Positions 17,736-45,575 of a stretch of 64,000 nt of DNA are shown piece after piece. The number at the start of each line of letters is the position of its first letter. Positions within the stretch are counted from its first letter, which is position 1. Under the pieces are notes generated by a model. That model had not been told where the DNA came from, did not search any database, and was given only the letters and a program-made list of their open reading frames with translations. The stretch is from Halolamina sp. (GTDB lineage: Archaea; Halobacteriota; Halobacteria; Halobacteriales; Haloferacaceae): positions 3,554 to 67,553 of the forward strand of contig JBDGTQ010000019.1 in the NCBI GenBank assembly GCA_042216705.1. The letters are read 5' to 3'. Both the position numbers and the translations under genes were made by a program.

Positions 17736-17838
17736 CGTCGGGGAGGCGGGCGAGCGCGAACAAAAGCCCCCCGGTCGGCGGTCGGCACCCCCAGCCCGAA
17801 CGACAGCTTTGATTGCCCCCGGCGACCGACTGAGCGCC

Positions 17839-21936: not shown

Positions 21937-23829
21937 ATGAAACTGAGGTCGTCCGAGCCCAGGGCGGAGGTAGACGTCCCGACCGGAGCGTGGCTTTTGG
22001 CGGGGGTTCCGTTGGCGGTGTCGTTCGTTCAGACGCTGATGGCGCTGTTCGGGTACACGTCGTCGGCGGCGGGTATCAAGCCGATCGCCGAGCCGGTGTT
22101 GTCGATCCCGATCCTGTACGAGGCCGCGGTCGTGTTCAAGACCCGGTCGGTCATCGTGATGGGACTGTTCGTGCTCATCGCCGGGGCGTGGATCGCACAG
22201 GGCCTGAGCATGCGGCTGTTCGAACACCGGGAGGCGACATACGGATTCGCCACCCTCGCCGCGTTGCTGTTCTTCTCGCTGTTTTTCGGCGTCTACTCGC
22301 CGCTGCTCGGGGCCGAAATCTCCGCGGCACAGCGTCTCGGCTTCTTCCTCGTCCCTCTCGTCGCCGCCGGAGCGATGCTGTACGCCGCGACCGCCTACGA
22401 CTGGTCGGACGTCGTCCTCGAAGAGGCCGGCGCCGACCTCGCCACGGTCAAGCGCGACCTCGCGAACGTCCGCCAGCGCTTCGAGTCGGCCTACGAGACT
22501 CGCTTCGCCGACCTCGACGCCCTCTCCGATCTGGCGCCTGAGGGCGTCACCGCCGTCCGCGAGGGACGGACGGAGTTCGAGGCGGAGCTCTCGGACATCG
22601 CCGACGACGTCGCCGCCGCACAGGCTGGCACGGGCGCCGACGAGGTGAGCCGTCGAGCGACAGAACTCCGGGAGACGGTGGCGTCGCTCGACCCTGTTGG
22701 CCGCGTCGACGCCCTCGACGCCGCGTTCCGGGAACGCCTCGAATCCGGCGTTCGGACCACGTACGGTACCGTCACGATACGGTCGCGCTACGGCGACACG
22801 TACACCCTCGTGAACCTCCCGACGGAACTTCGGGAGGCCGACCTCCCGGGGTCGTCGTCACCGGTCCACGTCGATTACCTCGCGGACGAGCTGATCGACG
22901 CGGTTCGGGGCGACGCGTCGATTTCGGCGCTGGCCGACCGCATCGAGGCCGTCGAGAGCCACCTGGACGACGTGCGTGCTCACCTCGACCGCGCGGAAAG
23001 CGAGATCGCGGACGACATCGACACCGCCGAGGAGGAGCTCGCGACCGCCGAGTCGCAGGTCGAGGCGCTCCGGGCTGGCTACGCCGAGCGGGTGGAAGAA
23101 ATCGCCGTGGACGGACGACGCGACGGGCTGACCGGCGTCGACGAGGTTCGCGACGAGCTCGACCGCGCGAAGGAGGCGTTGCACGACTGTCGGGCAGAGC
23201 AAGCGCGCGCTCTCGCCGACGACGCCCGCGCCGCGGCCGGCAAACTCGTCCCTTTCGTCGAGTTCGTGAGTACGCTGTCGGCGAGCATCGATCACGGCCA
23301 CGAGACGGTCTCCATTCCTGACGCGGTAGATACGGACGCCGTCGGGGCGCTGGCACCGGCCATCGAGGCGGCGAATCCCGCCGTCGAGGTCGCGGTCGAC
23401 GACGGCGAACTGCGGCTACGCTACGGCGAAGGGACGGCGTCGACGGAGTCCGAGTCGGACGCGAGTGACGACGCGGGCGAGGAGCGCGATGCCGTCGGAA
23501 CGTCCGAAACGACCGACCGGCGCCAGTCGGTCGCGCCCGCAAGCGACGTGGTCGACGAGGTGCTGTACGTGTTTCGGGAGTTCGAGGACGGCGCCGCCGA
23601 CGAGCCGTTCGTCCAGTACGACCTTTCGGAACTGCCCGACACCGTCGCGACCCGCGACGCGCTCGTCAACGTCCGCCGGTTCGCCGAGCGCCAGACCGAC
23701 CTCTTCGACGACGTCGAGCTCCAGGCCCCCGAACCCCCGGGGTTCGTCGAGTTCGACGTCTCTGATGGGGTGTCGGCACCGCGAGCGATAAAACAGACGC
23801 GCCGGCGGTTCAGGGAGAAGTACGCGTGA
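21937..23829 (+). CDS. polytopic membrane protein (about 5 TM) with long acidic coiled-coil cytoplasmic domain
   Basis: 630 aa, ATG. About 150 hydrophobic N-terminal aa, then heptad-like acidic helices (DLATVKRDLANVRQRFESAYE..., EAVESHLDDVRAHLDRAESEIADDIDTAEEELATAESQVEALR). TATA-like 'agtttag' about 28 nt upstream. Confidence 0.8.
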   Translation: MKLRSSEPRAEVDVPTGAWLLAGVPLAVSFVQTLMALFGYTSSAAGIKPIAEPVLSIPILYEAAVVFKTRSVIVMGLFVLIAGAWIAQGLSMRLFEHREATYGFATLAALLFFSLFFGVYSPLLGAEISAAQRLGFFLVPLVAAGAMLYAATAYDWSDVVLEEAGADLATVKRDLANVRQRFESAYETRFADLDALSDLAPEGVTAVREGRTEFEAELSDIADDVAAAQAGTGADEVSRRATELRETVASLDPVGRVDALDAAFRERLESGVRTTYGTVTIRSRYGDTYTLVNLPTELREADLPGSSSPVHVDYLADELIDAVRGDASISALADRIEAVESHLDDVRAHLDRAESEIADDIDTAEEELATAESQVEALRAGYAERVEEIAVDGRRDGLTGVDEVRDELDRAKEALHDCRAEQARALADDARAAAGKLVPFVEFVSTLSASIDHGHETVSIPDAVDTDAVGALAPAIEAANPAVEVAVDDGELRLRYGEGTASTESESDASDDAGEERDAVGTSETTDRRQSVAPASDVVDEVLYVFREFEDGAADEPFVQYDLSELPDTVATRDALVNVRRFAERQTDLFDDVELQAPEPPGFVEFDVSDGVSAPRAIKQTRRRFREKYA

Positions 23830-23890
23830 GCTCGGGCGGAAACGGCGGGAAAGATTCTCATGATAGCCCCCGCATCACCACGCAAGGACA

Positions 23891-25519
23891 ATGACAGAAG
23901 AATGTGAAATCTGCTTTACCCCCGCCCCCGACTGGCAGGCGGACTCGCTGGAGGGGCACATCCGGGAGGTGCACGTGAACGACGAGGCGTCGGTCCGTGC
24001 CATCTACGGCGGGCGATTCGGCCACGTCTTCGACGCGAGCGGGGAGGCGCCGGCGGACGCGGCCGCCGACGACGGCCACGAGGACGAGGACGACGGCGTC
24101 GTCCCCGGCGGGACGACCGACATCCCCGTCGGCGACGACGCCGCGGACGACGACGAGTTGTACGGGCGCAAGTGGTACGCCATTGGCGTCGGGGGCGCCG
24201 GCAACAACATCATCGACGCGATACTGATGCGCCGGGACACGCTGTTGCGCAACGACGAGGACCGCGCACGTATCTGGCGCGGCGGTCTAGCCGGCTACGG
24301 CATCCTCAACACGAACATCGCCGAGCTCGAACAGACGTACTACGCCCGCGAGCTGAAGGAGTACTCCCGCAACGACCTCCTGAGCAACGCCATCATCGGC
24401 ATGGGCGAACACGGCTACAGCGGGATGGGCTACCGCTGGAGCAACGGGGCTGAGGTCGCGGCCACCGACTTCGAGGACGCAGGAAACCCGTTCCGAGACC
24501 GCTGGGACATCAAACAGCAGGACGTCCGCGACGCCCAGGCCATCATGCTCGCACACAGCGTCACCAAGGGAACCGGGTGCGGCTCGACGCCGGTCATCGT
24601 CGACAGGCTCCGCGACGAGGTGCTCAACGACGACGGCGTCATCGGCAAGGCGGTGCTGAGCACGGTCGTCATCCCCTCGGAGGGAGGCAAACAGTCCGAT
24701 ATCGGCGGTCGTGCCAAGAGCAACGGCGTCGTCGGACTCGCCCGGCTCTCGCAGTCGGTCGACGCGGTCATCCCGTTCAACAACGACCACCTCCGCCGTG
24801 CGAGCACGGACATCACGCCGCGAATCGACGCGTTAGAGGAGTACAACCCCCCGGAGTACGCCGATCTCAACAAGCCGCTGGTCGCGTTCTTGGAGGCGTT
24901 CACGATGTCGTCGACCCCGCAGTTCGTCGACCGGGACGCGACGATGACCGTCCGGGGCAGCGTCTTCGACGTGGCCGACAGCTTCCGTCTCGTCGAGGAC
25001 AAGTACCCCTCCGAGATGGACACCGACGAACAGCCGGCGGTGGTGTTGGCTCCGGCGCTCGGTCGGCTCCACTCCGAGGAGATATCCCGGTCGAACCTCG
25101 AACTGCTGGCGCGTAACACGCTGTTGCAGAACAGGCTGGCCGACTTCGACCCGTCGACGGCCTGGGGCGGGAACTTCATGATTTACGGGCCGGCCGAGAA
25201 GATGGAGCGCGTCTCCTCGTTCGTCAACGACGGGACGGTCCAGCGAATCCTCAACGGCGAGGAGTTCCTCGACAGCACCGAGAGCCAGTCCGTGGAGTCC
25301 ATCGACGTTCAGCTCAACCAGATCGTCATCCCGTATCTCGACGACGTGTTCATGTGGGGAACGCTGTGGAACCCGCGGATGCCGGCACTGGAAGAGATGT
25401 ACGAACACACTCGCCAGCTGAAGGAGGAAGGCGGCACCAGACAGGCCGAGAACCTCCGCGAGACCTGGGACGACGTGGAGAAGCTGTTCTCCTGTCTCGG
25501 CCGAGAGAACCTCCTGTAA
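23891..25519 (+). CDS. tubulin/FtsZ-superfamily protein 1 with N-terminal C2H2-like zinc finger
   Basis: 542 aa. CEIC-x14-H-x4-H at aa 5-28, acidic linker, then T1 YAIGVGGAGNNIIDAIL, T3-like GMGEHGYSGMGY, degenerate T4 AHSVTKGTGCGSTPVIVD, VIPFNNDHL, T7-like GSVFDVADSF, all in the canonical order. Confidence 0.8.
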   Translation: MTEECEICFTPAPDWQADSLEGHIREVHVNDEASVRAIYGGRFGHVFDASGEAPADAAADDGHEDEDDGVVPGGTTDIPVGDDAADDDELYGRKWYAIGVGGAGNNIIDAILMRRDTLLRNDEDRARIWRGGLAGYGILNTNIAELEQTYYARELKEYSRNDLLSNAIIGMGEHGYSGMGYRWSNGAEVAATDFEDAGNPFRDRWDIKQQDVRDAQAIMLAHSVTKGTGCGSTPVIVDRLRDEVLNDDGVIGKAVLSTVVIPSEGGKQSDIGGRAKSNGVVGLARLSQSVDAVIPFNNDHLRRASTDITPRIDALEEYNPPEYADLNKPLVAFLEAFTMSSTPQFVDRDATMTVRGSVFDVADSFRLVEDKYPSEMDTDEQPAVVLAPALGRLHSEEISRSNLELLARNTLLQNRLADFDPSTAWGGNFMIYGPAEKMERVSSFVNDGTVQRILNGEEFLDSTESQSVESIDVQLNQIVIPYLDDVFMWGTLWNPRMPALEEMYEHTRQLKEEGGTRQAENLRETWDDVEKLFSCLGRENLL

Positions 25520-25523
25520 GACG

Positions 25524-26984
25524 ATGATCCCGCTACTCACCGTGTTCGGCCTGTTCGGCGGCGACGACGACGACGGCAACGACCTCGCGCGGGTGGCCGA
25601 CAGACTCGGAACGAGGCCGGACCCACGCCGGGTCGAGTCTCGGCTCGACGACCTGGCGGCCGCGGCCGACGAGCTGACGTCGGCCGCCGACGTCTCCGGT
25701 CCGGCCGGCCGCGTGTCGCCGGACGCGACGCCGGTCGAGAAGATCGAGGCGCTGGCGGCGGCCGTCGAAGCCGGGGAGCTCACCGTATCTCGGGAGTCGC
25801 CGACCGGGACTCGGACCGAAGACGGCGCCGTCGCGACCGCCGCGAGTGAGGTGCGCCGGACCGAGCGCCCGGGCGGCGTCGCGGCCGACCTGCTGGAGCG
25901 GCTCGCGGCGGCCCGGACCGTCGACGACGCGGAGCTTCTGAGCAGTCTCCGCGACGCGACCCGACGGCTGGAAACGTGTCGGACCCTCACCGACCGCGTC
26001 GACGAGACGACGACGGCGGCGGAGTACCGACGCCTCGCGGAGCGGTTGGACGCCCGCGACGACGACGTGGCGAGGACGCTCGCCGATGTCGTTGCCGACG
26101 CCGCGGAGAACTCGGATTCGGTCGCCGCCGACGAGCGCGACGAGAGGCTCATGATGGAGCTCCAGCGCGCCCTCGACGCGGTGGCACTCGACCGCCAGGT
26201 CGGCGACGGCGGCGTCGACCCCACGGTGGCGGCCACCGAGCTGGCCGACCACTTGGGGGGTCGAGCGGACGGCGAGAGGCCGACCGCGGCCGCGGCTCGG
26301 GCGGTCCGGCAGTCGGCCAACGCGGGAAGCGCGACTGCGCGACGGCTACTGGGCGACCTCGCTGACGACCGCTCGGGCGGCGACGCCGTCGAGGAGACGC
26401 TGCGAGCGGTCGTTGAGGAGCTCGACGAGGCGGCGACCGTTCGGAGCGTCGTCGGCGACGTGGACCACGACAGCGTCCGCGACCTCGCCGACGACGTCGC
26501 GGCAGCAACCGACAGGCTGGGAGACCCAGAGACCGCCGCGGCGCTCGGAGACCGGGTCGAGCAGCTCCGGCAGACGGTCGACCGCGCCGACGAGTCGAAC
26601 TCCGTCGTCGCTTACGCCGCCCGACGAGAGTTGCGCTTCTACGAGCGCGACCTCCTGCCGAGGCTCGACGGCGTCGACGGGAGTCAGGGGACGACAGACG
26701 ACGGCGCCGACGACGCCGCGGCCGCCGTCGAACGACTCGGGGACCGAACCGAACGCATCCGGGCGGAGTTCATCGAGGGCGTCGCGGACCACAACCACAG
26801 CATCCCGCTGCATTTCCTCTCACTGGTGGAGTCACTGCGTGAGGACGCCGACGACGCGCTGGCCCGAGGGGAGCCGAAACGAGCCGCCGGTTTCGCGGCT
26901 GCGGCGGGGTCGCTGCTCGACCACGTCCGTGACCTGTACGAGCGCAACGAGTACAGCGTGATGCTGCGTCGGCTCCGGGGCTAA
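25524..26984 (+). CDS. hypothetical highly acidic helical protein with short hydrophobic N-terminus
   Basis: 486 aa. Starts 4 nt after the preceding stop. MIPLLTVFGLFGG followed by Asp/Ala/Leu/Arg-rich predicted helices. No motif recognised. Confidence 0.7.
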   Translation: MIPLLTVFGLFGGDDDDGNDLARVADRLGTRPDPRRVESRLDDLAAAADELTSAADVSGPAGRVSPDATPVEKIEALAAAVEAGELTVSRESPTGTRTEDGAVATAASEVRRTERPGGVAADLLERLAAARTVDDAELLSSLRDATRRLETCRTLTDRVDETTTAAEYRRLAERLDARDDDVARTLADVVADAAENSDSVAADERDERLMMELQRALDAVALDRQVGDGGVDPTVAATELADHLGGRADGERPTAAAARAVRQSANAGSATARRLLGDLADDRSGGDAVEETLRAVVEELDEAATVRSVVGDVDHDSVRDLADDVAAATDRLGDPETAAALGDRVEQLRQTVDRADESNSVVAYAARRELRFYERDLLPRLDGVDGSQGTTDDGADDAAAAVERLGDRTERIRAEFIEGVADHNHSIPLHFLSLVESLREDADDALARGEPKRAAGFAAAAGSLLDHVRDLYERNEYSVMLRRLRG

Positions 26985-27060
26985 CGACCGCGAGACGGTG
27001 GGTGCGGCCGCCGCCGAAATGGGTGAGGTCGGCGGCCCGTTCGACTGGCAGGCCACGGTG

Positions 27061-27137
27061 TTAATTTCATAACAACTATTTCCGGAAAGTGTCGTTACAT
27101 ATATGAGGTATTCCCGACATTTGAGCCTCGTAACCAA
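27061..27137 (+). promoter_or_regulatory. AT-rich promoter island upstream of tubulin-like gene 2 (TATA-like 'acatatatg' at 27097-27105)
   Basis: Clearly A/T-rich non-coding stretch by eye (ttaatttcataacaactatttcc...ttacatatatgagg), immediately upstream of ATG 27138 and after a 153-nt gap. A possible 8-bp hairpin at 27010-27036 follows the previous gene. Confidence 0.45.
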
Positions 27138-28304
27138 ATGCCATATCTCTTCGTCGGCGCGGGCCAAGCGGGGTGTGCAATCGTCGACGCGGTGTTCGAC
27201 CACCAGCGCATCGCACAGCTCGCGACACCGGTGGCGATAAACTCGACCATCAGGGACCTCCAGAACCTCTCGAACGTTGACCGAGACGCGTGGTACGGAG
27301 TCGCGAGCGGTGAAGGGCTGGTTCCGGGGACCGTCCCTGGCTTCGAGGAACAGGTGACGGGTGGGTTCGGGCGCGATCCGCGAGCGGCGGCCGACGCCGT
27401 CGCCGACGCCGGGCCGGAGCTGCGGGACGCCTTCGCCGAGCAGTACGGCGAGGACGCCCCGCCGTTCGCGTTCGTCTTTCTCGGACTCGGCGGAGGAACC
27501 GGCTGCGGAATCGCGCCGCGGGTCGCCGAGGCGGTCAAGTCCTTCGGGGGGCCGTCGACGGACGTCATCGCAGTCGGCGTGTTGCCGAACACCGCCGGAT
27601 CGACGACCGACGGCGACGATGCGTCCGCGGTTCGCCAGGCCGAGAACACGGTGTACGGGCTCGACCGTCTGGAGGACGCCGTCGACGGCGTCGTGCTCGT
27701 CGACAACCAGCGCCTCGCCTACGAGGACGCCGCGGAAGGACGGTTCAGCGAGTACAACGAGTACGTCGCCGCGGCGATAGTCGACCTCATCTCCGGGCCG
27801 GTGCTCGAACGCATCGACCCGAGTTCCTACGAGGACCTGGACGCGCCAGTCATCGACCTGCAGGACGTGGTGACGTCGCTGACGCTGTCCGACGGCGGCC
27901 CTGGGTACGCGACGCTGGGTCGGTCGGTGACGATGACGAAGTCGATGCTGGGGTATCTGCTCCCGTTCGTCGGCAACGAGACGGTCGACGGGGCGACGCT
28001 GTCACGGCTGGCGGTGAGCAAGCGGAGCGTCGCCGACATCGCACCGGACGATGCGATCAAGGCGATCGGGCAGGTCCGGGCACCGGCGCGATACATCACC
28101 GACGACAGCTACCGCATCGAGGTGTCGATGATACGAGGCCTGCTCGACTCGTACTGCCCCGAGGTGAACATCGGCATGACGCTGACCGAGCGCAACCTGG
28201 CGTCGTTCACGACGCTGTTGACCTTCGAACGTGAAGACGTTTCCCGCATCCAGGAGCTGGAGGAAATCGCCGACCGAGCGACCCGCGCGGAGGCGTCGCC
28301 GTGA
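27138..28304 (+). CDS. tubulin/FtsZ-superfamily protein 2 (CetZ/tubulin-like)
   Basis: 388 aa. T1 LFVGAGQAGCAIVD at aa 4-17, T3-like TGGFGRDPRAAADA, T4 FLGLGGGTGCGIAP (aa 115-127), VVLVDNQRLAYE (compare tubulin DNEAL), T7-like APVIDLQDVVTSL (compare FtsZ NVDFADV). Confidence 0.85.
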   Translation: MPYLFVGAGQAGCAIVDAVFDHQRIAQLATPVAINSTIRDLQNLSNVDRDAWYGVASGEGLVPGTVPGFEEQVTGGFGRDPRAAADAVADAGPELRDAFAEQYGEDAPPFAFVFLGLGGGTGCGIAPRVAEAVKSFGGPSTDVIAVGVLPNTAGSTTDGDDASAVRQAENTVYGLDRLEDAVDGVVLVDNQRLAYEDAAEGRFSEYNEYVAAAIVDLISGPVLERIDPSSYEDLDAPVIDLQDVVTSLTLSDGGPGYATLGRSVTMTKSMLGYLLPFVGNETVDGATLSRLAVSKRSVADIAPDDAIKAIGQVRAPARYITDDSYRIEVSMIRGLLDSYCPEVNIGMTLTERNLASFTTLLTFEREDVSRIQELEEIADRATRAEASP

Positions 28305-28558
28305 CCCGACTGCGGACGCTCCTCACGGGCGCCGTCGTGGTCGTCGGAGCGCTGGCGCTGGCGACGCCGACCGCCGGCGGCGGCCCCGCCACGACGGCCG
28401 AACTCGTCCAGTCGGTCGCGACGACCCACCAGGCCGCGCTCGACGCGCGGCGTCTCGCAGGCGACCCGCTGGTGGCCGTCGCCGGCGGCGCGCTCGGACT
28501 GGGTGCGGGTTTCGTCGGCGGCGGCGTGGTCGCGTACAGCCGTCGGGGGTTGCGATGA
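28301..28558 (+). CDS. small membrane protein (85 aa; N-terminal signal/TM plus C-terminal Gly-rich TM)
   Basis: GTG start overlapping the upstream stop (GTGA), and its stop overlaps the next ATG (ATGA). LLTGAVVVVGALALA and VAVAGGALGLGAGFVGGGVVAY are hydrophobic segments. Confidence 0.6.
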   Translation: MTRLRTLLTGAVVVVGALALATPTAGGGPATTAELVQSVATTHQAALDARRLAGDPLVAVAGGALGLGAGFVGGGVVAYSRRGLR

Positions 28559-29643
28559 CGCCGGCGACGCGACTGCTCGCGGTCGTCGTCACGGTGGCGG
28601 TGCTCGCCGTCACGGGGGTCAGCCAGCCGGTTAGCGGCGCAGCACCGACCGCCAACGAGAGTTCCGTCGGCGTCTCTGCTCCCGACGCACCTTGTGCCGG
28701 CGTCTCCGAGACGCGGCTCGTCGGCTACCTGCCGACGAACGAGCGTGTCGAAAGCGACAGGTCGCTGTACGCCGGTTCGGAAATCGAACTGTTCCTCTGT
28801 CAGAGCGGCGACACCGAGCCGACCACCACGTGGTCGATAACCGGCGCCGACGGCTTCAAGATCGAAACGGAGGGGGAGTCGTCGGTCACAGTCGTCGTCA
28901 CCGCCGCCGACGGTGCGGTGTCGCTCGCCGACCACGTCGAGACCGACTACTCCCTTTCGGGTGCACCGTCGTTCACCCCCGTCTCGGCGTACCGAGCGAC
29001 ATCGGAACTCGGAGACGAGAGCCGAACGCTGACGTTCCCGTCTGCGGAGAGTCGGTCGGCGTTCGTCAGCAACGAGACGGCGTTCCAAAACGAGTTGCGG
29101 GAGCTCGAAACCGTCCGTGAGGAGATCAACTCGACGAACGCGACCGTCGACGGCTCGCTCGGAGCGCTCCCCGAGGACGAACTCGAACGCATCAACGGGA
29201 GCATCGGTCCGAGTGGGAAGCTGGCGACGACCGCCTCCGAACTCAACAGAAGCGCCTTCGCCGCGGTCGACGCCGGCGACGGCGGCGACGCGAGCGCCGT
29301 CATCGAAGCCGCCGGTCAGCGGCAGGCGACCGCCCGTTCGGAGACGGTCGCAGCGCTTCGGGCGTACCGGGAGCGGCTGAGCGACGTTCGTCGCGACGCG
29401 ACGCGCACGGTCCGACTCATGTTCGTGCTTCCGCTGCTCGGTCTGGCGCTCGTCGGCGCCGGCGGCGGATACGCCCTGGGCCGGCGGGTACTCGCCGGAG
29501 TGGAGTACGACCAACAGGTGTCGGCGCGGGAGTTCAGTCTCGCCGACGTCAAACTCCCGCTCGGAATCGGGACGGCGCTTCTGCTCGTCGGCGTCGGCGC
29601 GCTCGCCGTCCTCGGCAGGGCGTTCTTGGGGGTAATCGCATGA
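28555..29643 (+). CDS. secreted, sequon-rich protein anchored by two C-terminal TM helices
   Basis: Internal ATG (MTPATRLLAVVVTVAVLAVTG...) of track ORF 28231..29643. Signal peptide. Sequons NESS, NETA, NSTN, NATV, NGSI, NRSA. C-terminal VRLMFVLPLLGLALVGAGGGYAL and LPLGIGTALLLVGVGALAVLG. Confidence 0.8.
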   Translation: MTPATRLLAVVVTVAVLAVTGVSQPVSGAAPTANESSVGVSAPDAPCAGVSETRLVGYLPTNERVESDRSLYAGSEIELFLCQSGDTEPTTTWSITGADGFKIETEGESSVTVVVTAADGAVSLADHVETDYSLSGAPSFTPVSAYRATSELGDESRTLTFPSAESRSAFVSNETAFQNELRELETVREEINSTNATVDGSLGALPEDELERINGSIGPSGKLATTASELNRSAFAAVDAGDGGDASAVIEAAGQRQATARSETVAALRAYRERLSDVRRDATRTVRLMFVLPLLGLALVGAGGGYALGRRVLAGVEYDQQVSAREFSLADVKLPLGIGTALLLVGVGALAVLGRAFLGVIA

Positions 29644-31718: not shown

Positions 31719-32920
31719 TGGCCCGAGCTGACACCTACACGCGCTGGGGCATCGTCGCCGCCGGCGAGGGCGGCGGCCGCATCGCCGCCGAGTTCTTCGC
31801 CCGCAGCGACAACCCGGGAATCGACGACCGCATCGTCCTGTTGAACACGAACCGCGCCGACATTCGTAACACCATCGAGCAGGCCAACATCGAGGACTCG
31901 CTGGACGAGTACACGACGGTCTTCGGGTCGAAACGCGGCGTCGGCAACTCGTTCCTCGCCGGCGAGGAGTGCGCCAGGGAGGGCCTCGACGACATCGCTA
32001 GACAGATCGACGACAGAGCGCCCGACGCCGACGCGTTCCTCCACACGACGACGCTGGGCGGCGGCACGGGCAACGGCACCATCCCGTATCTGATGCGACA
32101 GTTCGACGCCGGGTCGGAGATGGAGACGCGACGGCCCTGGATGGACAGCGCGGTCCACATCGCTCTGGCGGCGTGGCCGTACTACGACGAGCCGGCTCAC
32201 AGACAGTTCAACGCCATCTGCGGTCTCTCCCGACTCCTCCGCCGGCGCGACGGCGAACAGAACGCCGACATGGTGTTGCTGGCGGCGAACTCCCACCTCG
32301 ACGAGAGCGGTGCTGCCGACAGCTACGACGCGGTCAACAGGCGGATTCTTTCGGCCATCGACCTGCTCATCAGCGCCGGTCGAGAGGCCCACGGCGTCGT
32401 CGACGTCGAAGATTACGTCGCCAAGCCGTCGGAAATCGGGGCGTATCACTTCACCCCGGCGGTCGGCGAGGGGCTGAACGCGAAGATGCTCGAGTTCGAA
32501 CTCCTGTTCGACCGCGCCGCCGAGAACGCGTTCGTTCCGATGGACGTGGGGACTTCGCGGGCAGCCTACGCCATCGTACGCGCTCCCGAGAGGCTGATCG
32601 ACAGCGGCGAGGTGACCACGAACGACGTCAAGAGCGCGTTCAACGACTGGAAGCGCAAGCACGGGCTGGGTGCGGCGGTCGGCATGTCCACGCTGGCCCC
32701 CAAAGACGACCGCAGCAACGACGTCGACGTGTTGTTACTGCTCGGCGGCTTCGATCTGAACCCCCTGTTGGAGCACGCGCGGGGGCGGTTCGAGGAGCAC
32801 AAGGAGAACCTCGAAACGGCCAGACAGCTCGGCACCCAGGCCGAGTCCGCGGTTTCGGAGGCGTACCTCGCCGACCTCGAGGACAACCTCCAGACGTACG
32901 TCGACTTGAACGCGAGGTGA
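31718..32920 (+). CDS. tubulin/FtsZ-superfamily protein 3
   Basis: 400 aa. T1 WGIVAAGEGGGRIAAEF, T3-like FGSKRGVGNSFLAGEE, T4 FLHTTTLGGGTGNGTIPYL, MVLLAANSHL, T7-like HGVVDVEDYV, in canonical order. Confidence 0.8.
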   Translation: MARADTYTRWGIVAAGEGGGRIAAEFFARSDNPGIDDRIVLLNTNRADIRNTIEQANIEDSLDEYTTVFGSKRGVGNSFLAGEECAREGLDDIARQIDDRAPDADAFLHTTTLGGGTGNGTIPYLMRQFDAGSEMETRRPWMDSAVHIALAAWPYYDEPAHRQFNAICGLSRLLRRRDGEQNADMVLLAANSHLDESGAADSYDAVNRRILSAIDLLISAGREAHGVVDVEDYVAKPSEIGAYHFTPAVGEGLNAKMLEFELLFDRAAENAFVPMDVGTSRAAYAIVRAPERLIDSGEVTTNDVKSAFNDWKRKHGLGAAVGMSTLAPKDDRSNDVDVLLLLGGFDLNPLLEHARGRFEEHKENLETARQLGTQAESAVSEAYLADLEDNLQTYVDLNAR

Positions 32921-32926
32921 CCGCGC

Positions 32927-35740
32927 GTGAGAGCCAGCACACCACGACTGCCCGCGGCGGTGACGGCGGCTCTCGTCGCCGCCGTCGTCGCCGGCGCCGC
33001 GATGGGAGGTGCCGTGACGACCCTCGCCGGCGTCGCTCCCGCGAGCGCCACCTCGGCGACGGCTCAGGCCGACGGCGACGTCCGACAGGCGGCCAACGGT
33101 GACCTGGTCGTGGAACTCGACGCCAGCGAGGTGAACGAGAGCAACGCAGTCACCATCGCCGTCGCCGACCAGACGTACGAGCGGCCGGGGTCGGGGAACC
33201 AGACGCTCACGTACACGGTCGCAGCCGGCGAGCTCCCGGACGGCGGCGTCGCGGACACGAACGTGACTGTCACTCAGGACGGGGACCGACTGGCGACGGC
33301 GACGCTCGACCTGCGGTACCTCCGTCTGAGCGACGGCCCGCGGTTTGACGACCGAGGGCGACTGGTGCTCAACGTCGACCGGAGCGTCGGCGTCGCGGGT
33401 GCAACAGTCAACCTGACGGTAACCGGCAACGGCGCGACCGAGCAGGTCCCGGTCGACGTTGGCGCTGACGGGTCGACGGTCCGGCTGGCCCGGACGCAGT
33501 CGTTCGTCGAGACGGCGTTGCTCCCTCCGACGTCGATAACGGTGGGTGATGCCGACGGCGGAGCGACCGTCCCGAACGAGGTCACGGTACCCATCCCAGA
33601 GACGGTGTCGTCGGGGACAACCGTCAGCGTCGTCGGCGACACGGTCGTCGTGGAAAGTCCGCTGCTCGTCGGGGGGGCGGAGTACGACGTGACGGTGCAG
33701 ACGACGGAGCCGAGCGGTGAGTACCAGGACCGTGCGACCGCCGGACAGCCGGATAACGGAATCGCACGACTGACCGTGGAGAACGGAGAGGTCACTGCGG
33801 CCAGCGAACTCACGGCGAGCGTGACGTACCGCGGTACGGACGTCACGTCGGCGACCGCGACGACGACCACCGCTCCGCTGTCGGCCACGCTGGAATATAA
33901 CGGATCCGGCGATAACGCGACGGTGATCAACGTCTCGGGGATGGGCGACGTCGGAACGGTCGAGAAGGTGCTCCTCAAGACAGCTAACGACGTCTACGCC
34001 GTCAACGAGGTGAATCGAGACGGGAGTCTGCTCCGCTTCCCGAATCTGTCGGTCACCTCGGGGCGGTACGAACTCGCTGTGATAGGCGCCGACGGGACGG
34101 CTCGGCTCACCGTCGGCGAGGGAGCACTCGGCGAGGTCGGCGGAGACGAAGCGATATCGTCGGGGAGCGACTCGGGCGTCGGCCGCTCATCCGGCACGTC
34201 GCTGTCGCCGCGGAACGTTCTCGTCGTGCTGGTGGCGCTTGTTCTCGGCGGTGGTGGCGTGTACGCCTTGCTCTCCGTGGCACCTGGAGGGTCGGGCGGA
34301 CGACGCAGGTCACGACGGGCCGGCGGCGCTCGGACCGCCTCGGTGCAGGTGACGGTCCGGGACGAACAGACCGGCCACCCGGTCGACGGGGGCCGCGTCG
34401 TCGCCCGGAAGGCGGGGCGCAACGAGTTCAATACCGAGGGGCCGGCTGCGTCGGCCGAACTCGTCGACGGGACGGCCGACCTCACGCTCGAACCCGGCCC
34501 CAGCTACAGGGTCGAAGCTCAGTACGGCGGCACGACCGCCGTCGAGCGGGTCGAAAATCTCGCGAGCGACCGCCAGTTGTCGATTTCGTTGCCGCCACTG
34601 CGGACGCAGTTGTCCGTCGTCGACGACCGCAGCGAGCCGGTGACCGAGGCGGACGTGTCGTTGACGGGCGCCGACGTGTCGGGCGAGCGTGCCGTCCGGG
34701 ACGATGGCACCATTCAGCTGAAGCTGTCGCCGGTGCAACGCGACATCACTCTCACGGTCGAACACGACCGCCTGACCGACGAGACGGTCCACGTGGACGA
34801 GCCCGCGGACCTGCCGAGCAGAGTCGTGCTCGGCGTCCCGACCGGGTCGGTGACGGCGTCGCTGTCGATAGACGGCGAGGCGACCGACTGCGGGCGGATC
34901 GAGCTCGAACCTGCCGAAGGGTGGTTACGCGACCGCGTCGACGTCGAGTACGCCGAGGTCTCCGACGGGGAGGTCAGCTTCGAGAGCCTCCCGGCCGGGG
35001 CGTACGAGGTGACCACCGCCGTCGGGGGCGAACAGTTCGACACGGCGACGGAGACGGTGCGCGTCCAGAACGGGGGTCGCGCTCGGGCACGGCTGGACGT
35101 CAGCTTCGAGTACGACCTCTCGGCCGACCAGCGGAACCGACTCGCGGAACTGCAGACGGCCGCGGACGACCTCGTGCCGACGAGTCAGCTCGACGGGGCC
35201 GTCCACCGCTACTACGCCAGCGTCGTTCGGTCGCTGGTGAGCGAAATCGAGCGGGTGCCGCGGCTCGGCGCGCGCTTCGCCGGCGCGGACGTCGGCCCCG
35301 ACGAGACCGTCGAGGCGCTGCTGTGGGCCGGCGAGTCGCTGCTGGACATCATCGACCCGGCGCTGAACACGAAGCACAACGTCGACCTCTTCAGCGCGTG
35401 TGCGAACATGCGCCAGGCGGACATCCGCTGGGAAAGTGGTTACGAGCTCGACTCGTTCTTCGAGTTGGCCGCGGCCGACCGCGGCGAACAGCGGTCCCGG
35501 CTGCGGGCGGCGCTGTCCGAGGCCGAGTCGACGGTCGAGGCGGAGCGGTCGGAGGTGACCGTCGCCTCCCCGGCCCGGGCCGTCATGGACGAGCTTCAGT
35601 CGCACGTTCAGGACACGCGGGAGTCCGACGAGGTCCGCCACGCGGCGCTGACCGTCGTCGTCGTCGGCCTGGCCGACGCGGTGGAAACGCTGTTCGACCA
35701 TCCGGAACTCCGGGACCGACTCAACAGGACGGTGTACTGA
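32927..35740 (+). CDS. large bitopic envelope protein: signal peptide, about 420-aa sequon-rich ectodomain, one TM, about 490-aa cytoplasmic domain
   Basis: 937 aa, GTG start. Signal AAVTAALVAAVVAGAAMGGAV. Sequons NESN, NQTL, NVTV, NLTV, NGSG, NATV, NVSG, NLSV all precede the TM VLVVLVALVLGGGGVYALLSV, which is followed by RRRSRRAGGAR (positive-inside). Then beta-sandwich-like repeats (VQVTVRDEQTGHPVDGGRVVA...) and a helical tail. Confidence 0.85.
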   Translation: MRASTPRLPAAVTAALVAAVVAGAAMGGAVTTLAGVAPASATSATAQADGDVRQAANGDLVVELDASEVNESNAVTIAVADQTYERPGSGNQTLTYTVAAGELPDGGVADTNVTVTQDGDRLATATLDLRYLRLSDGPRFDDRGRLVLNVDRSVGVAGATVNLTVTGNGATEQVPVDVGADGSTVRLARTQSFVETALLPPTSITVGDADGGATVPNEVTVPIPETVSSGTTVSVVGDTVVVESPLLVGGAEYDVTVQTTEPSGEYQDRATAGQPDNGIARLTVENGEVTAASELTASVTYRGTDVTSATATTTTAPLSATLEYNGSGDNATVINVSGMGDVGTVEKVLLKTANDVYAVNEVNRDGSLLRFPNLSVTSGRYELAVIGADGTARLTVGEGALGEVGGDEAISSGSDSGVGRSSGTSLSPRNVLVVLVALVLGGGGVYALLSVAPGGSGGRRRSRRAGGARTASVQVTVRDEQTGHPVDGGRVVARKAGRNEFNTEGPAASAELVDGTADLTLEPGPSYRVEAQYGGTTAVERVENLASDRQLSISLPPLRTQLSVVDDRSEPVTEADVSLTGADVSGERAVRDDGTIQLKLSPVQRDITLTVEHDRLTDETVHVDEPADLPSRVVLGVPTGSVTASLSIDGEATDCGRIELEPAEGWLRDRVDVEYAEVSDGEVSFESLPAGAYEVTTAVGGEQFDTATETVRVQNGGRARARLDVSFEYDLSADQRNRLAELQTAADDLVPTSQLDGAVHRYYASVVRSLVSEIERVPRLGARFAGADVGPDETVEALLWAGESLLDIIDPALNTKHNVDLFSACANMRQADIRWESGYELDSFFELAAADRGEQRSRLRAALSEAESTVEAERSEVTVASPARAVMDELQSHVQDTRESDEVRHAALTVVVVGLADAVETLFDHPELRDRLNRTVY

Positions 35741-35742
35741 TC

Positions 35743-36789
35743 ATGGTCCCGACAGACGCACGCGTCGCGGTGGGTGCGGTCGTCGCCCTCGTGTTGACGA
35801 CGACGGTCGCGTCGGGCGCGGTCGCCGGAGCAGCGACGGCGACGACGGCGACGGCGACGACGGCAGTCCCGCCGCCGACGGCGGACGAACTGCTCACGCG
35901 GCTCCAGTCCTTCGAGGAGGAGCCGGCGCTGAGCGAGTACAGCGAGTTGGAGGTGATGCGGAGTCAGGCGGTTTCGACGGTACAGGTCGGCAACGCATCC
36001 CTCGCCGAGCGACGCCGTATCGCCGGCATCGTGACGGTGCTCTCGGAGTTCGTCGAGGCGTACGAGCTGGCCGCCGCCGGCGACCGCATCGAGAGCCTCG
36101 AAGCGGCGAACGAGACGCAGACGGCCATCGACTCGGTGAGGGAAGCGGGCGGCGACCAGTACGCGCGACTGGCGCAGGTGGCTCTGGAGCGGTTCTATCG
36201 CGACCAGGGAGACGAGCTCTACCAGCGCGGACAGGAGTCCACGAACACCACGGCGAAGCTCGAACTGTACGGCGCCGCACGTGAGGCGTACGAGGCCGGC
36301 GGTGCTGACCGACGGCTCGCGGAGATAACGGTGGTTTCCCAGGAGCTCCGAGCCGAGTTCGCCGTCGACAGCCGACGGTTGTCGGGGGCGCTGGCGAACG
36401 CCTCGGCGTTCGTCGCCGACTGTGGCGACGGCTGTGACGGTCCGCTCGCCGCGCTCGCCGCGCTCGGACCGAACGTCTTCGCCGCCTACACCGACGCCCG
36501 TCGCGCCCACGCCGCCGCTCGACAGGCCCAGCGCCTGTCGGACAAACACGGCCTGACCGCCCGCTCCGAGCGCGCCGCGACGCTGGTCGACGAGTCCGGG
36601 ACGGCGCTCGGCAGCTTCGCGGTCGCGAGCGTCCTCCTCGCGCTCGGCTACGGCGGTGCCGTTGCTCTCGTCGGTGCCGTCGTGAGCCACCGGCTCGCAA
36701 CGTGGGCGCTCGAAGTCGAGGGCGCACGAGTCGGACGCATCGTCCCACAGGCGACCGTCGAAGTCGAGCCGGAGGTGACCGAGTCGTGA
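35743..36789 (+). CDS. secreted helical protein with C-terminal TM anchor
   Basis: Internal ATG (MVPTDARVAVGAVVALVLTTTVASGAVAG...) 3 nt after the upstream stop. Sequons NASL, NETQ, NTTA, NASA. C-terminal FAVASVLLALGYGGAVALVGAVV. Confidence 0.75.
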   Translation: MVPTDARVAVGAVVALVLTTTVASGAVAGAATATTATATTAVPPPTADELLTRLQSFEEEPALSEYSELEVMRSQAVSTVQVGNASLAERRRIAGIVTVLSEFVEAYELAAAGDRIESLEAANETQTAIDSVREAGGDQYARLAQVALERFYRDQGDELYQRGQESTNTTAKLELYGAAREAYEAGGADRRLAEITVVSQELRAEFAVDSRRLSGALANASAFVADCGDGCDGPLAALAALGPNVFAAYTDARRAHAAARQAQRLSDKHGLTARSERAATLVDESGTALGSFAVASVLLALGYGGAVALVGAVVSHRLATWALEVEGARVGRIVPQATVEVEPEVTES

Positions 36790-39500
36790 GGGGGCGCCGT
36801 CCGCTCGCGGCGCTGGCGATGGTCGCGCTGCTGGTCGCGGGGGCATCGACGGGCGCCGTCGCCGCGTCCGGGAGCGTCGAACTCGACGCCGCGCTGTCGG
36901 AGCAATCGAAGACCGACGAGCTGACGTTCACTTTCACCCCGTCACAGGACGCGACCGTCACCGCCACCGACCGCATCGAGCGCGCGAACGGTAACGTCAC
37001 GTTCGCGTTCGACGAGTGGGAGCGGACCGACGGCCAGGGGTCGGGGACGAACAACAGCTGGGATGTCGTCGCCGGCGTCGAGTACCGAGTGACGTACGTC
37101 GCCACCGCACGGTCCGGCGCCGCCGAGGACACCTACTTCGGGACGGCGGAGGTCACCGCCAGCGACGGGTCGTTGGTGGCCGACGAGTCGCTGTCGCTGC
37201 AGGTCGACGTGTTGTATCCGCAGTTCGGCTTCGTCGACAGGCAGTCCACCGAGGTCGTGTTCGACGACGCGGACCTGCAATCGGCTTCGAGCCAGGTGTC
37301 GTTTCCGGTGCCGAACTCCGGCCAGGGGGTGATGAAGCCGACGGACGTCTCGGTGAGCAACCTCCCTCAGGGGTTCACCGTCGCCTCGACGGCGCTGCCC
37401 GACACCGTCTCGCCCGGCAGCGAGGGCGAAGGGACCGTCGAACTCGCCGTCGACGACGACGTCAACGAGGGAACATATAGCTTCGACGTGACGGTGACGG
37501 ACTCGCTGGGCAACCAGCGGTCGTTCGCCGTCGACGCCACGGTTTCGAAGCCGCCGATCGCCGACGTCTCCGACACGGAGGCGAACCTCGGCGACGTGCT
37601 CGTCGGGCAGACGAGCCGGAAGACGTTCAGCGTCTCCGAGACGGCCGGATTCGAGGGTCTGAGCGGCGTCACCGTCGACGACTCGTCGGCGGAGCAGGAC
37701 GCCACGCTCGACTTCGAAGGACTGTCGCGGGTGTCGACGCAGCCGAGCGGCTCCGACACCGCGACGGCAGTCGTCGACGTCAGCAGCGACGCGAGACAAC
37801 ACGAGACGCTGTCGTGGACGGTGCAGCTCAGCGGCGAGGCGCCCGACTCGCCGACGCGGCAGGTCGAGTTCGAGGCGCGGGTCATCTATCCGGCGCGACT
37901 GGGCACCGTCGAGGCGTCGTCGACGACGCTTCCTTTCGACGAGCCCCGCGACCAGGTGTCGGCTCAGGACGGGTCGACGACGGTCAGCGTCGAGAACACC
38001 GGGGACCTGGAGATGGACGTCACGGGCGTCGACGTGACGATGCAGAGCGGAAGCCAGGACATCTCCGCCAGGGCCGTCGACGTGCCCGACACGGTGGCCG
38101 GACTCTCCAGCCAGAACGTGACGATACGGTACCGCGCCGACGCGGACACTCCCGAGGGGAGTTACGACGCGGTGGTGACGGTCAGGACGGCCGACGCCGG
38201 GACGCAGACCGTCGAAACCACCGTCGAGGTGACCCAATCGGCCGAGCTCGTCGTCGACGACCGAATGCAGTTCGGCGAGGTGACGATAACCAGCAACCAG
38301 ACCCGGTCCGCAGACGTCGCCGAGCGACTCGGCTACGAGGACGTGACCGGGCTGACGGTCGAGGTGGTATCGGGGCCCGAAGAGTGGCTGACGCTGGTCC
38401 AGCAGCCGCCATCGCGCCTCGACGCCGGGACGGAGTCGTCGCTGGTCGCCGCCGTCCGCTTCGACACCGAGGCCGAACTGTACACGGAGTACACCTGGAC
38501 CATCCGGGTCGACGGCGAGGACGTCGAGCCTCAGACCGTCACCATCTCCGCGACGGCGAAGCCCTACTCCTTCGACCGCGTCACGGAGCCGCTCGGGGAG
38601 TACTCCGACCGAGGCGACTGGCGGGCGGAGACGGCCAGCGGTACGCTCTCGGCGCTTTCGACGCTCGAATCCGATCTCCGCGGCGACGGATCGGTCGCCG
38701 ACGGCGACCTCTCGTCGGCGCTGGCGGCCGGCCGCGCGACGCTACTGTTCATCGAATCCATCGAGGACGCCCGTACCGCCCAAGAGGACGGGGAGTACGC
38801 CGGCGCCCAGGAGAACCTCACCCGAGCGGCGGCAGCCAGGGATCTGCTGGTGCAGTACGTAGACGCGATTCAGTCCGATGAGGTCCGCTCGGCGGCGCGG
38901 GAGTCGCTCCAGGCCGCGAACGCGTCGCTGTCGGAAAGCGTCGCCGCGCAGCGCGGCCACTACCAGGACGTTCTCGCGGACGACCCGAGCGCGTTCGAAC
39001 GGGCCAGGGCCCACCGCGCTCTGGCCAGGCTCGCGACCATCACCGGCGACGAGACGACCGCGAGCGAACACCGCGAGCAGTACGAGGCCGCCTCCGACCG
39101 GTACGTGACGCTGGTGCAGAACGCTTCGACCGCCCGCGCCGAGGCCGGCAGCGCCTGGACCGCCTACCGAGCGGAGGCGACGCTGGTGGTCGCCGGCTAT
39201 CCGCTCGTCCTCAACCCCGCCAGGCTCGACACCACGCTGGCGCGAACGAGCCGAGTGAATCGGCTTTATGCCGAGGCCGAGACGATGTACGCCGAGGCGG
39301 GCGCGACCGCAGAGGCTGAGGCGGTGAACCAGCGCGCCGCGACGGTGTCGAGCCGAGCGACCGTATCGCGGTACGTTCTGTACGGGACGACGGGCGCCTA
39401 CGGCATTGGGTTCCTCGCCGTCGTCGCCAGACTGTCGCTGAACGCCTACGCGTTCGTCCAGGACACGGCCGCGGCCGCGACCGGCGACTTCCTCCGCTGA
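36786..39500 (+). CDS. large secreted sequon-rich surface protein (Ig/CARDB-like repeats plus helical region) with C-terminal TM anchor
   Basis: GTG at 36786 overlapping the upstream stop (GTGA); alternative ATG at 36819. Signal LAALAMVALLVAGASTGAVAASG. Repeated beta-rich modules (VELAVDDDVNEGTYSFDVTVTD, TVSVENTGDLEMDVTGVDV, YDAVVTVRT). Sequons NVTF, NNSW, NQTR, NVTI, NLTR, NASL, NAST. C-terminal GAYGIGFLAVVARLSL. Confidence 0.8.
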   Translation: MRGRRPLAALAMVALLVAGASTGAVAASGSVELDAALSEQSKTDELTFTFTPSQDATVTATDRIERANGNVTFAFDEWERTDGQGSGTNNSWDVVAGVEYRVTYVATARSGAAEDTYFGTAEVTASDGSLVADESLSLQVDVLYPQFGFVDRQSTEVVFDDADLQSASSQVSFPVPNSGQGVMKPTDVSVSNLPQGFTVASTALPDTVSPGSEGEGTVELAVDDDVNEGTYSFDVTVTDSLGNQRSFAVDATVSKPPIADVSDTEANLGDVLVGQTSRKTFSVSETAGFEGLSGVTVDDSSAEQDATLDFEGLSRVSTQPSGSDTATAVVDVSSDARQHETLSWTVQLSGEAPDSPTRQVEFEARVIYPARLGTVEASSTTLPFDEPRDQVSAQDGSTTVSVENTGDLEMDVTGVDVTMQSGSQDISARAVDVPDTVAGLSSQNVTIRYRADADTPEGSYDAVVTVRTADAGTQTVETTVEVTQSAELVVDDRMQFGEVTITSNQTRSADVAERLGYEDVTGLTVEVVSGPEEWLTLVQQPPSRLDAGTESSLVAAVRFDTEAELYTEYTWTIRVDGEDVEPQTVTISATAKPYSFDRVTEPLGEYSDRGDWRAETASGTLSALSTLESDLRGDGSVADGDLSSALAAGRATLLFIESIEDARTAQEDGEYAGAQENLTRAAAARDLLVQYVDAIQSDEVRSAARESLQAANASLSESVAAQRGHYQDVLADDPSAFERARAHRALARLATITGDETTASEHREQYEAASDRYVTLVQNASTARAEAGSAWTAYRAEATLVVAGYPLVLNPARLDTTLARTSRVNRLYAEAETMYAEAGATAEAEAVNQRAATVSSRATVSRYVLYGTTGAYGIGFLAVVARLSLNAYAFVQDTAAAATGDFLR

Positions 39501-44545: not shown

Positions 44546-44556
44546 AGTCGTCGAGC

Positions 44557-45573: not shown

Positions 45574-45575
45574 TG

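Follow-up and report, generated by a model that had tools for sequence, protein, structure and literature searches.

Two published computational studies each describe about half of a type of locus found in Halobacteria, and the copy analyzed here is a new member of that type. Our window is a stretch of 64,000 nucleotides (~70% G+C) from a Halolamina metagenome-assembled genome (MAG). [quoted passage not shown] Our additions to the published accounts are that the two halves belong together, that the tubulins number three, that the predicted adaptor g7 is conserved, and that a core of the locus is found across phyla. The best explanation for the locus, to which we give an even chance, is that it encodes membrane-tethered tubulin-family filaments coupled to surface proteins, for local membrane remodeling or protein sorting. 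A literature search recovered no experimental study of the locus.

The first description concerns the Halobacteria tubulin group "Halo.Tub" (Santana-Molina et al. 2023, PMC9871819). By the supplementary alignment of that study, g2 is a member of the group: its C-terminal half is 51% identical over 228 residues (E 2e-87) to WP_014555346.1 in the Halo.Tub-C alignment. Several tubulin copies in quasi-tandem with coiled-coil neighbors are described as a trait of Halo.Tub, and the same arrangement is seen here, where g2, g4, and g8 lie within 9 kb alongside g1, g3, and g7. That account is without the neighbors, membrane topology, the ESCRT-like operon, and the cross-phylum core.

The second description is that of the "Halo_adaptin" group of divergent ESCRT-like loci (Makarova et al. 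2024, mBio 15:e00335-24; PMC10936438). These loci encode a Vps4-like ATPase that lacks MIT and has a VAT/Ufd1-like (Cdc48/VAT-like) N-domain, a candidate ESCRT-III protein on weak evidence, winged-helix proteins resembling Vps36, two beta-propeller/immunoglobulin (Ig) "adaptin-like" proteins, more Ig proteins, a membrane protein, and one CetZ-like protein; their predicted role is protein sorting or vesicle formation. The AAA ATPase, a beta-propeller/Ig protein, and membrane-anchored proteins are all seen in the Halolamina locus. Two entries in Table S2 of that study, pHS2 OE_RS12000-12040 and Haloquadratum (Hqr.) walsbyi HQRW_RS02535-02575, correspond to h5-h1 plus g11-g8 in order and orientation, and between our window and pHS2 the order and strand agree at 26-57% identity. 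The g8 orthologue in the table is OE_RS12040, and g8 orthologues are placed in arCOG02202. Because Table S2 stops at the g8 orthologue, g7-g1 with two tubulins fall outside that description. The locus goes on from g7 to g1, which adds two tubulin-family genes and four membrane proteins to that account, and beyond Halobacteria its tubulin and membrane part is found in the absence of the ESCRT-like genes. A preliminary description of our stretch, made from the letters alone, held that such genes were not known to be organized with envelope proteins; with parts of the locus published in 2023 and 2024, that statement was outdated.

Layout and conservation of the locus

The locus is organized in three transcription blocks (g1-g3, g4-g11, and the convergent h5-h1), with the following features (lengths in amino acids, aa; TM, transmembrane segment):

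21937-23829, + strand: g1, 630 aa; 4-5 N-terminal TM and a long acidic coiled-coil cytoplasmic domain
23891-25519, + strand: g2, 542-aa tubulin-family GTPase (Halo.Tub group); C-terminal extension long and conserved
25524-26984, + strand: g3, 486-aa acidic helical cytoplasmic protein with N-terminal GLFGG and no TM
27061-27137, + strand: AT-rich intergenic island; has a TATA-like element and is probably an internal promoter for g4-g11
27138-28304, + strand: g4, 388-aa CetZ-like tubulin-family GTPase; core paralogue A
28301-28558, + strand: g5, 85 aa; two hydrophobic segments, Gly-rich C-terminal TM
28555-29643, + strand: g6, 362 aa; signal peptide, sequon-rich outside domain, two C-terminal TM
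29640-31718, + strand: g7, 692-aa predicted adaptor; N-terminal 2-TM hairpin, remainder cytoplasmic
31718-32920, + strand: g8, 400-aa CetZ-like tubulin-family GTPase; core paralogue B; arCOG02202, "FtsZ3" (Makarova 2024)
32927-35740, + strand: g9, 937-aa bitopic protein; signal peptide, outside domain of ~400 aa, TM at residues 431-449, cytoplasmic domain
35743-36789, + strand: g10, 348 aa; signal peptide, helical outside domain, C-terminal TM anchor; arCOG12846
36786-39500, + strand: g11, 904 aa; signal peptide, Ig-like/choice-of-anchor-D-like beta-sandwiches, helical stalk, C-terminal anchor
39517-42315, - strand: h1, 932 aa; BamB/PQQ-like beta-propeller followed by Ig-like domains, without signal peptide
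42312-43916, - strand: h2, ~534-aa single-domain AAA+ ATPase (Vps4-like, arCOG01307); N-domain and (GGNGS)n linker
43913-44545, - strand: h3, 210 aa; arCOG15282; ESCRT-III-like according to Makarova 2024, on weak evidence
44557-45573, - strand: h4, 338-aa very acidic coiled coil; arCOG11741; reported in the literature as winged helix plus coiled coil
45576-46700, - strand: h5, ~374 aa; arCOG11740; Vps36-like winged-helix protein according to the literature

All 11 g open reading frames (ORFs) of the preliminary description were recovered at these coordinates, with coding-type G+C at third codon positions (GC3, 0.86-0.90). The overlaps and small gaps reported at their junctions are likewise present, and the genes are translationally coupled by overlaps (-4, -1, and -8) that recur across genera. 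The AT-rich island is real as well: an AT-rich gap precedes g4 in 28 loci, with a lowest 40-nucleotide GC of 0.20-0.42 against a locus median of 0.69. The cluster had been taken to end at 39500. Only sixteen bases separate the g11 stop from the end of a tightly coupled convergent five-gene operon (39517-46700) that also belongs to the conserved locus. Within this operon h3 overlaps h2, and h2 overlaps h1, by ATGA. The start of h5 was placed at 46700, downstream of a TATA-like box.

A genome-wide scan seeded with g8 yielded 56 loci, in which synteny was then scored by a hidden Markov model of each family. Across Halobacteria the genes proved to be co-localized rather than scattered: in all 27 loci with full flanks, 10-11 of the 11 g genes are present and keep one order, and 25 of these loci have h1 convergent on g11. 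The genera with the locus are Halobaculum, Halorussus, Halopenitus, Halorubellus, Natrinema, Haloarchaeobius, Halorubrum, Haloarcula, Halanaeroarchaeum, Haloparvum, Haloquadratum, Natronomonas, Halobiforma, and Halobacterium, together with one unclassified Haloferacaceae MAG; a shorter Halolamina locus (L027) spans g4-g11. The loci are on chromosomes or megaplasmids, the megaplasmid copies occurring in Halobacterium, Halobaculum, and Natrinema. On pHS2 of Halobacterium (Hbt.) salinarum R1, where the locus spans OE_RS12000-12075, and on a Halobaculum roseum plasmid, 15 of the 16 genes (h3 among them) were matched in the same order and orientation. The gene left over is g5, which is too short or diverged to match there, and a small ORF is annotated at this position in both. 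More generally, a two-segment ORF of 77-107 aa follows g4 in 29/29 loci, mostly overlapping the g4 stop codon.

Part of the locus is also found outside Halobacteria. In MAGs of Hydrothermarchaeota and other euryarchaea, two tubulins (g4 and g8), g7, and g10/g11 occur together, often with g9. The order in these non-halophiles is a g9-like gene, divergent g11-like and g10-like genes, and then g4-like, g7-like, and g8-like genes, and the signal-peptide and anchor architectures are kept. Micrarchaeota have the tubulin-g7 part only, as g7-g8 with g4 nearby on the other strand. A single non-Halobacteria locus (L033) has an AAA gene, which encodes a 411-aa ATPase directly upstream of the g4-like gene.

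Several features of these distant neighborhoods are recorded here as observations. In L033 the AAA ATPase gene is preceded by genes for two ~194-aa proteins (MIPFGR... and MGLFGKK..., L033:3265-4435). Their N-termini, like the GLFGG of g3, recall those of ESCRT-III proteins, but homology was unsupported by Pfam, NCBIfam, or hhalign, and hhalign detected no relation of g3 or h3 to the two L033 proteins, which are of ESCRT-III size. The L033 record (JAZJZE010000005.1) is titled "MAG: bacterium" yet has an archaeal-type tubulin-g7-g10-g11 module with the AAA gene; the title could reflect a misclassified bin or a transfer into a bacterium. In two Hydrothermarchaeota-type loci (L035:11393-20145 and L048:11253-13406) the module adjoins NosD/beta-helix and Big_13 surface proteins of 717, 867, and 1815 aa, and the L035 neighborhood also has an archaemetzincin-like peptidase (M54).

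Tubulin-family GTPases and their membrane partners

All three proteins reported as tubulin/FtsZ relatives score as members of that family in profile searches. They pass the Pfam gathering cut-off of PF00091 (Tubulin, 33 bits) with 48.9 (g2), 48.9 (g4), and 37.6 bits (g8), and hhalign supports their mutual homology (g2-g4, E 8.5e-14; g4-g8, 2.9e-12; g2-g8, 3e-9). The motif strings quoted in the preliminary description are present, and the GTP-binding and T7 motifs are kept in 29-32 Halobacteria orthologues per family: GAGQAG (T1), GGGTGCG (T4), and DLxD (T7) in g4; GEGGG (T1), GGGTGNG (T4), and DVxD (T7) in g8; and GGAGNN, TKGTGCG (T4), and FDVxDSFR (T7) in g2. The T7 acidic pair, whose role in the superfamily is to activate hydrolysis of GTP in the adjacent subunit, is conserved in all three families. 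T1, T4, and T7 are also kept by 24-26 non-halophile orthologues of g4 and g8, as GVGQCG, GGGTGSG, and IDLKD in the g4 relatives and GEGAN, GGGTGNG, and IDIADY in those of g8. A conserved C-terminal tail, as docking peptides would have, is found in each family.

The nearest solved relatives of g4 and g8 are CetZ proteins: CetZ1 and CetZ2 of Haloferax volcanii (4b46, 4b45) and CetZ of Methanosaeta thermophila (3zid). Against the PDB, the g4 family profile finds CetZ structures first (7e-20, 9e-18, and 3e-16), then FtsZ (1e-12) and TubZ (1e-10), and the best sequence match of g8 is CetZ1 (4b46, 4e-8). In a Foldseek search with a low-confidence AlphaFold2 (AF2) model of g8 (mean predicted local distance difference test, pLDDT, 46.6), all 50 best matches listed are of the tubulin superfamily, with CetZ1, CetZ, and CetZ2 on top (TM-score 0.44-0.52), which lends weak support. 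The T1, T4, and T7 logic is common to the CetZ proteins and g4 and g8, but identity is only ~20%, and the gene context of cetZ1 and cetZ2 is unrelated to this locus. The CetZ clade has been described as bounded by Thermococcales CetZs (Brown and Duggin 2023), and the main CetZ branch was reported not to include the Hqr. walsbyi orthologue (PMC10936438). PF13809 (Tubulin_2) was reached by g4 only, at 15.6 bits versus a cut-off of 27.

None of the three is FtsZ proper. The FtsZ equivalog model TIGR00065, with a cut-off of 295.2 bits, gives 37.3 (g2), 49.3 (g4), and 20.1 bits (g8). Because these scores are so far below the cut-off, the label "cell division protein FtsZ" is an over-annotation; g4 is 100% identical to an NCBI protein so named ("MAG: cell division protein FtsZ [Halolamina sp.]"). 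Database curators use the name "FtsZ family protein, noncanonical." A pNRC200 gene called "cetZ5" (VNG6260G) was reported to be regulated by growth phase (Darnell et al. 2020, PMC7439475) and is presumably one gene of this cluster.

Of the three, g2 is very remote from solved structures (gamma-tubulin, 3e-5 with the single sequence and ~1e-3 with a profile). Its orthologues have an N-terminal C-x2-C-x14-H-x4-H motif (C5, C8, H23, and H28, >=80% conservation, encoded at 23891-23980), which looks like a zinc finger ahead of the tubulin domain, the latter following an acidic linker.

The pairing of g4 and g8 recalls alpha/beta-tubulin, BtubA/B with BtubC, and AtubA/B of Asgard archaea, which are likewise paired paralogues. 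Here the gene for g7 always sits between the two core tubulin genes, and the fact that g4 and g8 are always encoded together with this partner gene suggests obligate hetero-assembly. As differences from those pairs, g4 and g8 both keep the T7 acidic residues, and a heterodimer is at this point conjectural. The partner g7 is membrane-embedded, and no similarity between it and BtubC was detected. There may also be a functional likeness to FtsZ with its membrane tethers SepF, ZipA, EzrA, and FtsA: here too, filaments would probably be held by TM proteins with helical domains (g7 and g1). The differences are that g2, g4, and g8 are not FtsZ, that g7 is unlike any solved tether in sequence or fold, and that this locus has outside partners. 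In the FtsZl-1 system (Makarova and Koonin 2010), a Tubulin_2 protein has vWA, a distinct GTPase, and OmpA as neighbors, none of which is present at this locus.

The other eight g proteins had been described as membrane-associated. From hydropathy and charge, a membrane or secreted topology is predicted for all of them except g3, for which an N-terminal TM was rejected because the hydrophobic stretch is too short. The GLFGG motif is part of this short hydrophobic N-terminus in many g3 orthologues, and scans of g3 against Pfam and NCBIfam returned no family. With a pI of 4.3 and zero sequons, g1 has weak matches to SMC/ASRP-type coiled coils only. Sequon density is 1.20 per 100 aa in regions predicted outside versus 0.30 in cytoplasmic ones (4-fold). 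The enrichment is marked in g6 and in the N-terminal part of g9, and g11 shows none.

The predicted adaptor g7 has two TM segments and ~640 soluble residues by hydropathy. Its AF2 model (mean pLDDT 82) consists of a TM hairpin, a ~370-aa long-helix domain, a beta-sandwich, and a C-terminal alpha/beta domain; comparison with PDB folds gave nothing below E 0.01 beyond a generic beta-sandwich, and PDB profile searches with g7 and g11 were uninformative. The family is rare. A word-indexed homologue search gave just 6 proteins, and an exhaustive profile search confirmed a small family of 79 clusters among 1.84 billion representative proteins. By hhalign (probability 98%, E 8e-14), g7 is homologous to a 457-aa protein whose gene lies between those of the two tubulins in Hydrothermarchaeota. 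In the Halolamina MAG that has the NCBI protein identical to g4, g7 is ABEJ79_06485 and g8 is ABEJ79_06490.

Other partner proteins are related to one another. A common beta-sandwich links g7 to the cytoplasmic half of g9 (hhalign probability 87%), which has weak matches to transthyretin/CarboxypepD_reg-like beta-sandwiches and a conserved helical C-terminus. Similarly, g10 is homologous to the helical, anchored C-terminal third of g11 (hhalign probability 71%). The g11 protein matches Ig-like/choice-of-anchor-D families in Pfam and NCBIfam and its type has been named an "adaptin (TRAP-beta) appendage domain" protein (Makarova 2024, PMC10936438); its C-terminal hydrophobic segment is weaker here and clear in distant orthologues. 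The positional g9 orthologue is split over three arCOGs: the pHS2 copy is OE_RS12035 (L003:15209-17962), and g9 orthologues other than this one fall in arCOG04500 or arCOG10368.

The convergent operon and genomic setting

In the convergent operon, h2 is a classical AAA+ ATPase with a single AAA domain (PF00004, 108 bits) and no MIT match in a Pfam scan. Its best PDB match is the D2 domain of Cdc48/p97 (2e-48), with Vps4 at 1.5e-25, and it scores 105 bits with the CdvC model, for which the cut-off is 650. The mechanical ORF of h2 reaches 44165; the start was set at 43916, where an ATGA overlaps the h3 stop. The long mechanical ORFs of h2 and h5 were both rejected in favor of starts that fit orthologue lengths (529-579 aa for h2; 371 aa for the h5 orthologue OE_RS12000 on pHS2) and upstream signals. 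At 43329-43411 in h2, a 15-nucleotide unit repeated 5.5 times at 98% identity encodes the (GGNGS)n linker that leads from the N-domain to the AAA domain.

The h1 profile matches BamB/PQQ propellers (2e-6) and Ig-like designs (7e-7) in the PDB, and "adaptin-like" is a label from the literature. A hydropathy peak at residues 140-158 of h1 was rejected as a TM, since h1 lacks a signal peptide and these residues belong to the beta-propeller. No Pfam (E to 1) or NCBIfam (E to 0.1) match was obtained for h3, with which no ESCRT-III profile-profile or structure comparison was made, and neither Pfam nor NCBIfam matched a family to h4 or h5. The published Halo_adaptin assignments of ESCRT-III and winged-helix proteins were thus not reproduced with these two databases. 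For the h5 orthologue, the published HHpred probability to Vps36 is 95 (PMC10936438).

The flanks of the locus are housekeeping genes. Upstream are a branched-chain amino-acid ATP-binding cassette (ABC) transporter, UvdE, histidine kinases, and an HxlR regulator; downstream are an amidohydrolase, MsrA, leu/ilv genes, aconitase, and DNA ligase. Window scans for tRNA and Rfam families were both empty, and within the window there is no integrase and no composition shift at the locus. On these grounds the locus is chromosomal in the Halolamina genome. A membrane histidine kinase gene (20786-21847, - strand) is divergent from g1; the pairing is probably local, because a different gene is upstream of g1 in pHS2 and the Halobaculum plasmid. 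Farther upstream, ORFs on opposite strands overlap (16476-17945, - strand, and 17395-19113, + strand, 572 aa, GC3 0.93, no Pfam match), and just one can be a true gene across the overlap. A 520-aa ORF with coding-type GC3 and no Pfam match (59339-60901, - strand) adjoins the DNA ligase gene.

Possible function of the locus

We propose that membrane-tethered filaments are coupled to the surface set because the genes are translationally coupled and syntenic, the TM proteins have cytoplasmic domains, and the core is co-inherited across phyla. In such a system g2, g4, and g8 would polymerize on the cytoplasmic face of the membrane, where three proteins could hold the filaments: g7 with its 2-TM hairpin, g1 with its multiple TM and coiled coil, and g9 with its cytoplasmic half. 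The filaments would thereby be coupled to the anchored, sequon-rich set outside (g5, g6, the N-terminal part of g9, g10, and g11). Halobacteria would add the cytoplasmic operon, with the h2 ATPase, the h1 propeller/Ig protein, and the small helical or winged-helix proteins h3-h5 serving ATP-driven remodeling or disassembly. The likeliest output is local membrane and envelope remodeling together with sorting or positioning of the surface proteins of the locus itself, for example in a vesicle, a protrusion, or a specialized envelope patch. Cell division is not a likely output.

A filament system mechanically linked to the envelope had been proposed from the letters alone. A functional link to the envelope is supported by co-localization and by the cross-phylum core; the adjacent ESCRT-like operon, which that proposal missed, favors remodeling over a purely mechanical reading. 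That earlier interpretation is partly supported and needs widening to the ESCRT-like operon, and the mechanical linkage, heteropolymer formation, and glycosylation in it are inferred.

Several observations count against filament-based remodeling as we propose it. The T4 loop of g2 (TKGTGCG) departs from the GGGTG[ST]G-type signature, although the variant is itself conserved, and the AF2 model of g8, built from a 13-sequence alignment, is poor at its mean pLDDT of 46.6. The ESCRT-like assignment of the operon is weakened by h2 being nearer to the Cdc48 D2 domain than to Vps4, by the lack of a Snf7 or PspA match to h3 in our scans, and by a published HHpred probability of only 33 for h3 to PspA (PMC10936438). 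The locus is patchy among Halobacteria and sometimes on megaplasmids, a pattern that fits an accessory or conflict function equally well, and the model haloarchaeon Haloferax is not among the genera recovered. Finally, polymerization, a heteropolymer, all protein-protein contacts, glycosylation, and the cellular output are what we infer rather than observe.

One alternative is a static or force-bearing trans-envelope cytoskeleton that anchors or moves surface adhesins without budding, the AAA operon serving only to turn over filaments or anchors. It would account for the cross-phylum core without ESCRT-like genes, for bitopic proteins with large domains on either side of the membrane, and for the adhesin-like Ig/beta-sandwich domains outside, and published work gives CetZ relatives roles in shape and motility. 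The convergent ESCRT-like operon in 25/27 Halobacteria loci suggests remodeling instead, as does the AAA gene directly upstream of g4 in L033. We also know of no gliding or similar behavior in these organisms, and overall we think this cytoskeleton fairly unlikely. An ESCRT-centered vesicle or protein-sorting system in which the tubulin-like proteins are peripheral accessories (Makarova et al. 2024) is in our view unlikely. The published Vps4-clade ATPase, Vps36-like winged helix (HHpred 95), and adaptin/TRAP-beta-like Ig domains (PMC10936438) speak for it, and the gene-by-gene agreement with the listed Halo_adaptin loci was confirmed here. The published neighborhood windows end at g8, however, and so miss g1-g7 and two tubulins, the tubulin-g7-g10/g11 module occurs without h2-h5 in other phyla, and h3, the candidate ESCRT-III protein, gets no support from Pfam or NCBIfam.

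We consider it quite improbable that the locus is an accessory conflict or defense module (for contact-dependent antagonism, exclusion, or anti-virus functions) that has spread horizontally. The patchy distribution with megaplasmid copies in Halobacterium, Halobaculum, and Natrinema would suit such a module, and h2 resembles the defense-system AAA proteins IetA and TRIP13. Yet among ten proteins scanned with PADLOC (those other than g4, g5, g6, g8, g10, and h3), the generic AAA of h2 was the only hit apart from weak coiled-coil matches of g1, and no system-specific defense model was matched; Pfam and NCBIfam scans revealed no toxin, nuclease, or immunity domains. The GC of the locus equals that of its housekeeping flanks, and a phage origin was rejected after zero matches in 50,697 phage records. 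It is extremely improbable that the locus is a TubZ-type system for segregating megaplasmid DNA. TubZ-TubR-tubC and phage PhuZ are likewise diverged prokaryotic tubulins, sometimes plasmid-borne, and tubulin relatives on megaplasmids, the zinc-finger-like N-terminus of g2, and TubZ and RepX among the weaker PDB matches could all be read that way. This candidate was rejected, as we found no TubR-type protein and no centromere-like intergenic iterons, the locus is chromosomal here and in many genomes, and translational coupling ties the tubulins to eight membrane or secreted proteins in a context rich in membrane proteins. The preliminary description had already argued against a TubZ-type plasmid or virus module, and our searches, which found no TubR, iterons, integrase, or phage homologue, agree.

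Returning to membrane-tethered filaments coupled to surface proteins, the fact that two tubulins, g7, and g10/g11 travel together outside Halobacteria supports functional coupling, and the ESCRT-like reading of the adjacent operon points to membrane remodeling rather than a purely mechanical cytoskeleton. Since the core occurs without h2-h5 in other phyla, the tubulin-membrane module appears to be the primary and older part and the ESCRT-like operon a haloarchaeal addition. Going further, the two tubulins, g7, and g10/g11 (with g9) may form an ancient archaeal trans-membrane tubulin machine, reduced in Micrarchaeota, that predates the ESCRT-like genes and can work without them, to which Halobacteria joined a third tubulin and a Vps4/ESCRT-II/"adaptin"-like operon. 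This proposal is tentative, and we regard it as possible rather than probable.

With its two halves combined, the locus has three tubulins, not one, and its tubulin-membrane core is older and more widespread than the ESCRT-like part. Tight genetic coupling joins three tubulin-family GTPases with an ESCRT-like AAA module and eight membrane or surface proteins. If the tentative reading of an ancient machine joined to that operon is true, prokaryotic tubulin-like filaments and ESCRT-like remodeling would act together on Ig-domain membrane proteins that resemble cargo, a pairing of the trafficking type that is otherwise considered eukaryotic. The presence of the locus on a megaplasmid of the tractable Halobacterium salinarum R1/NRC-1 makes deletion, tagging, and cryo-electron tomography feasible. 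Confirmation would establish a new envelope function for prokaryotic tubulins and would bear on the link between cytoskeleton and membrane remodeling before eukaryotes.

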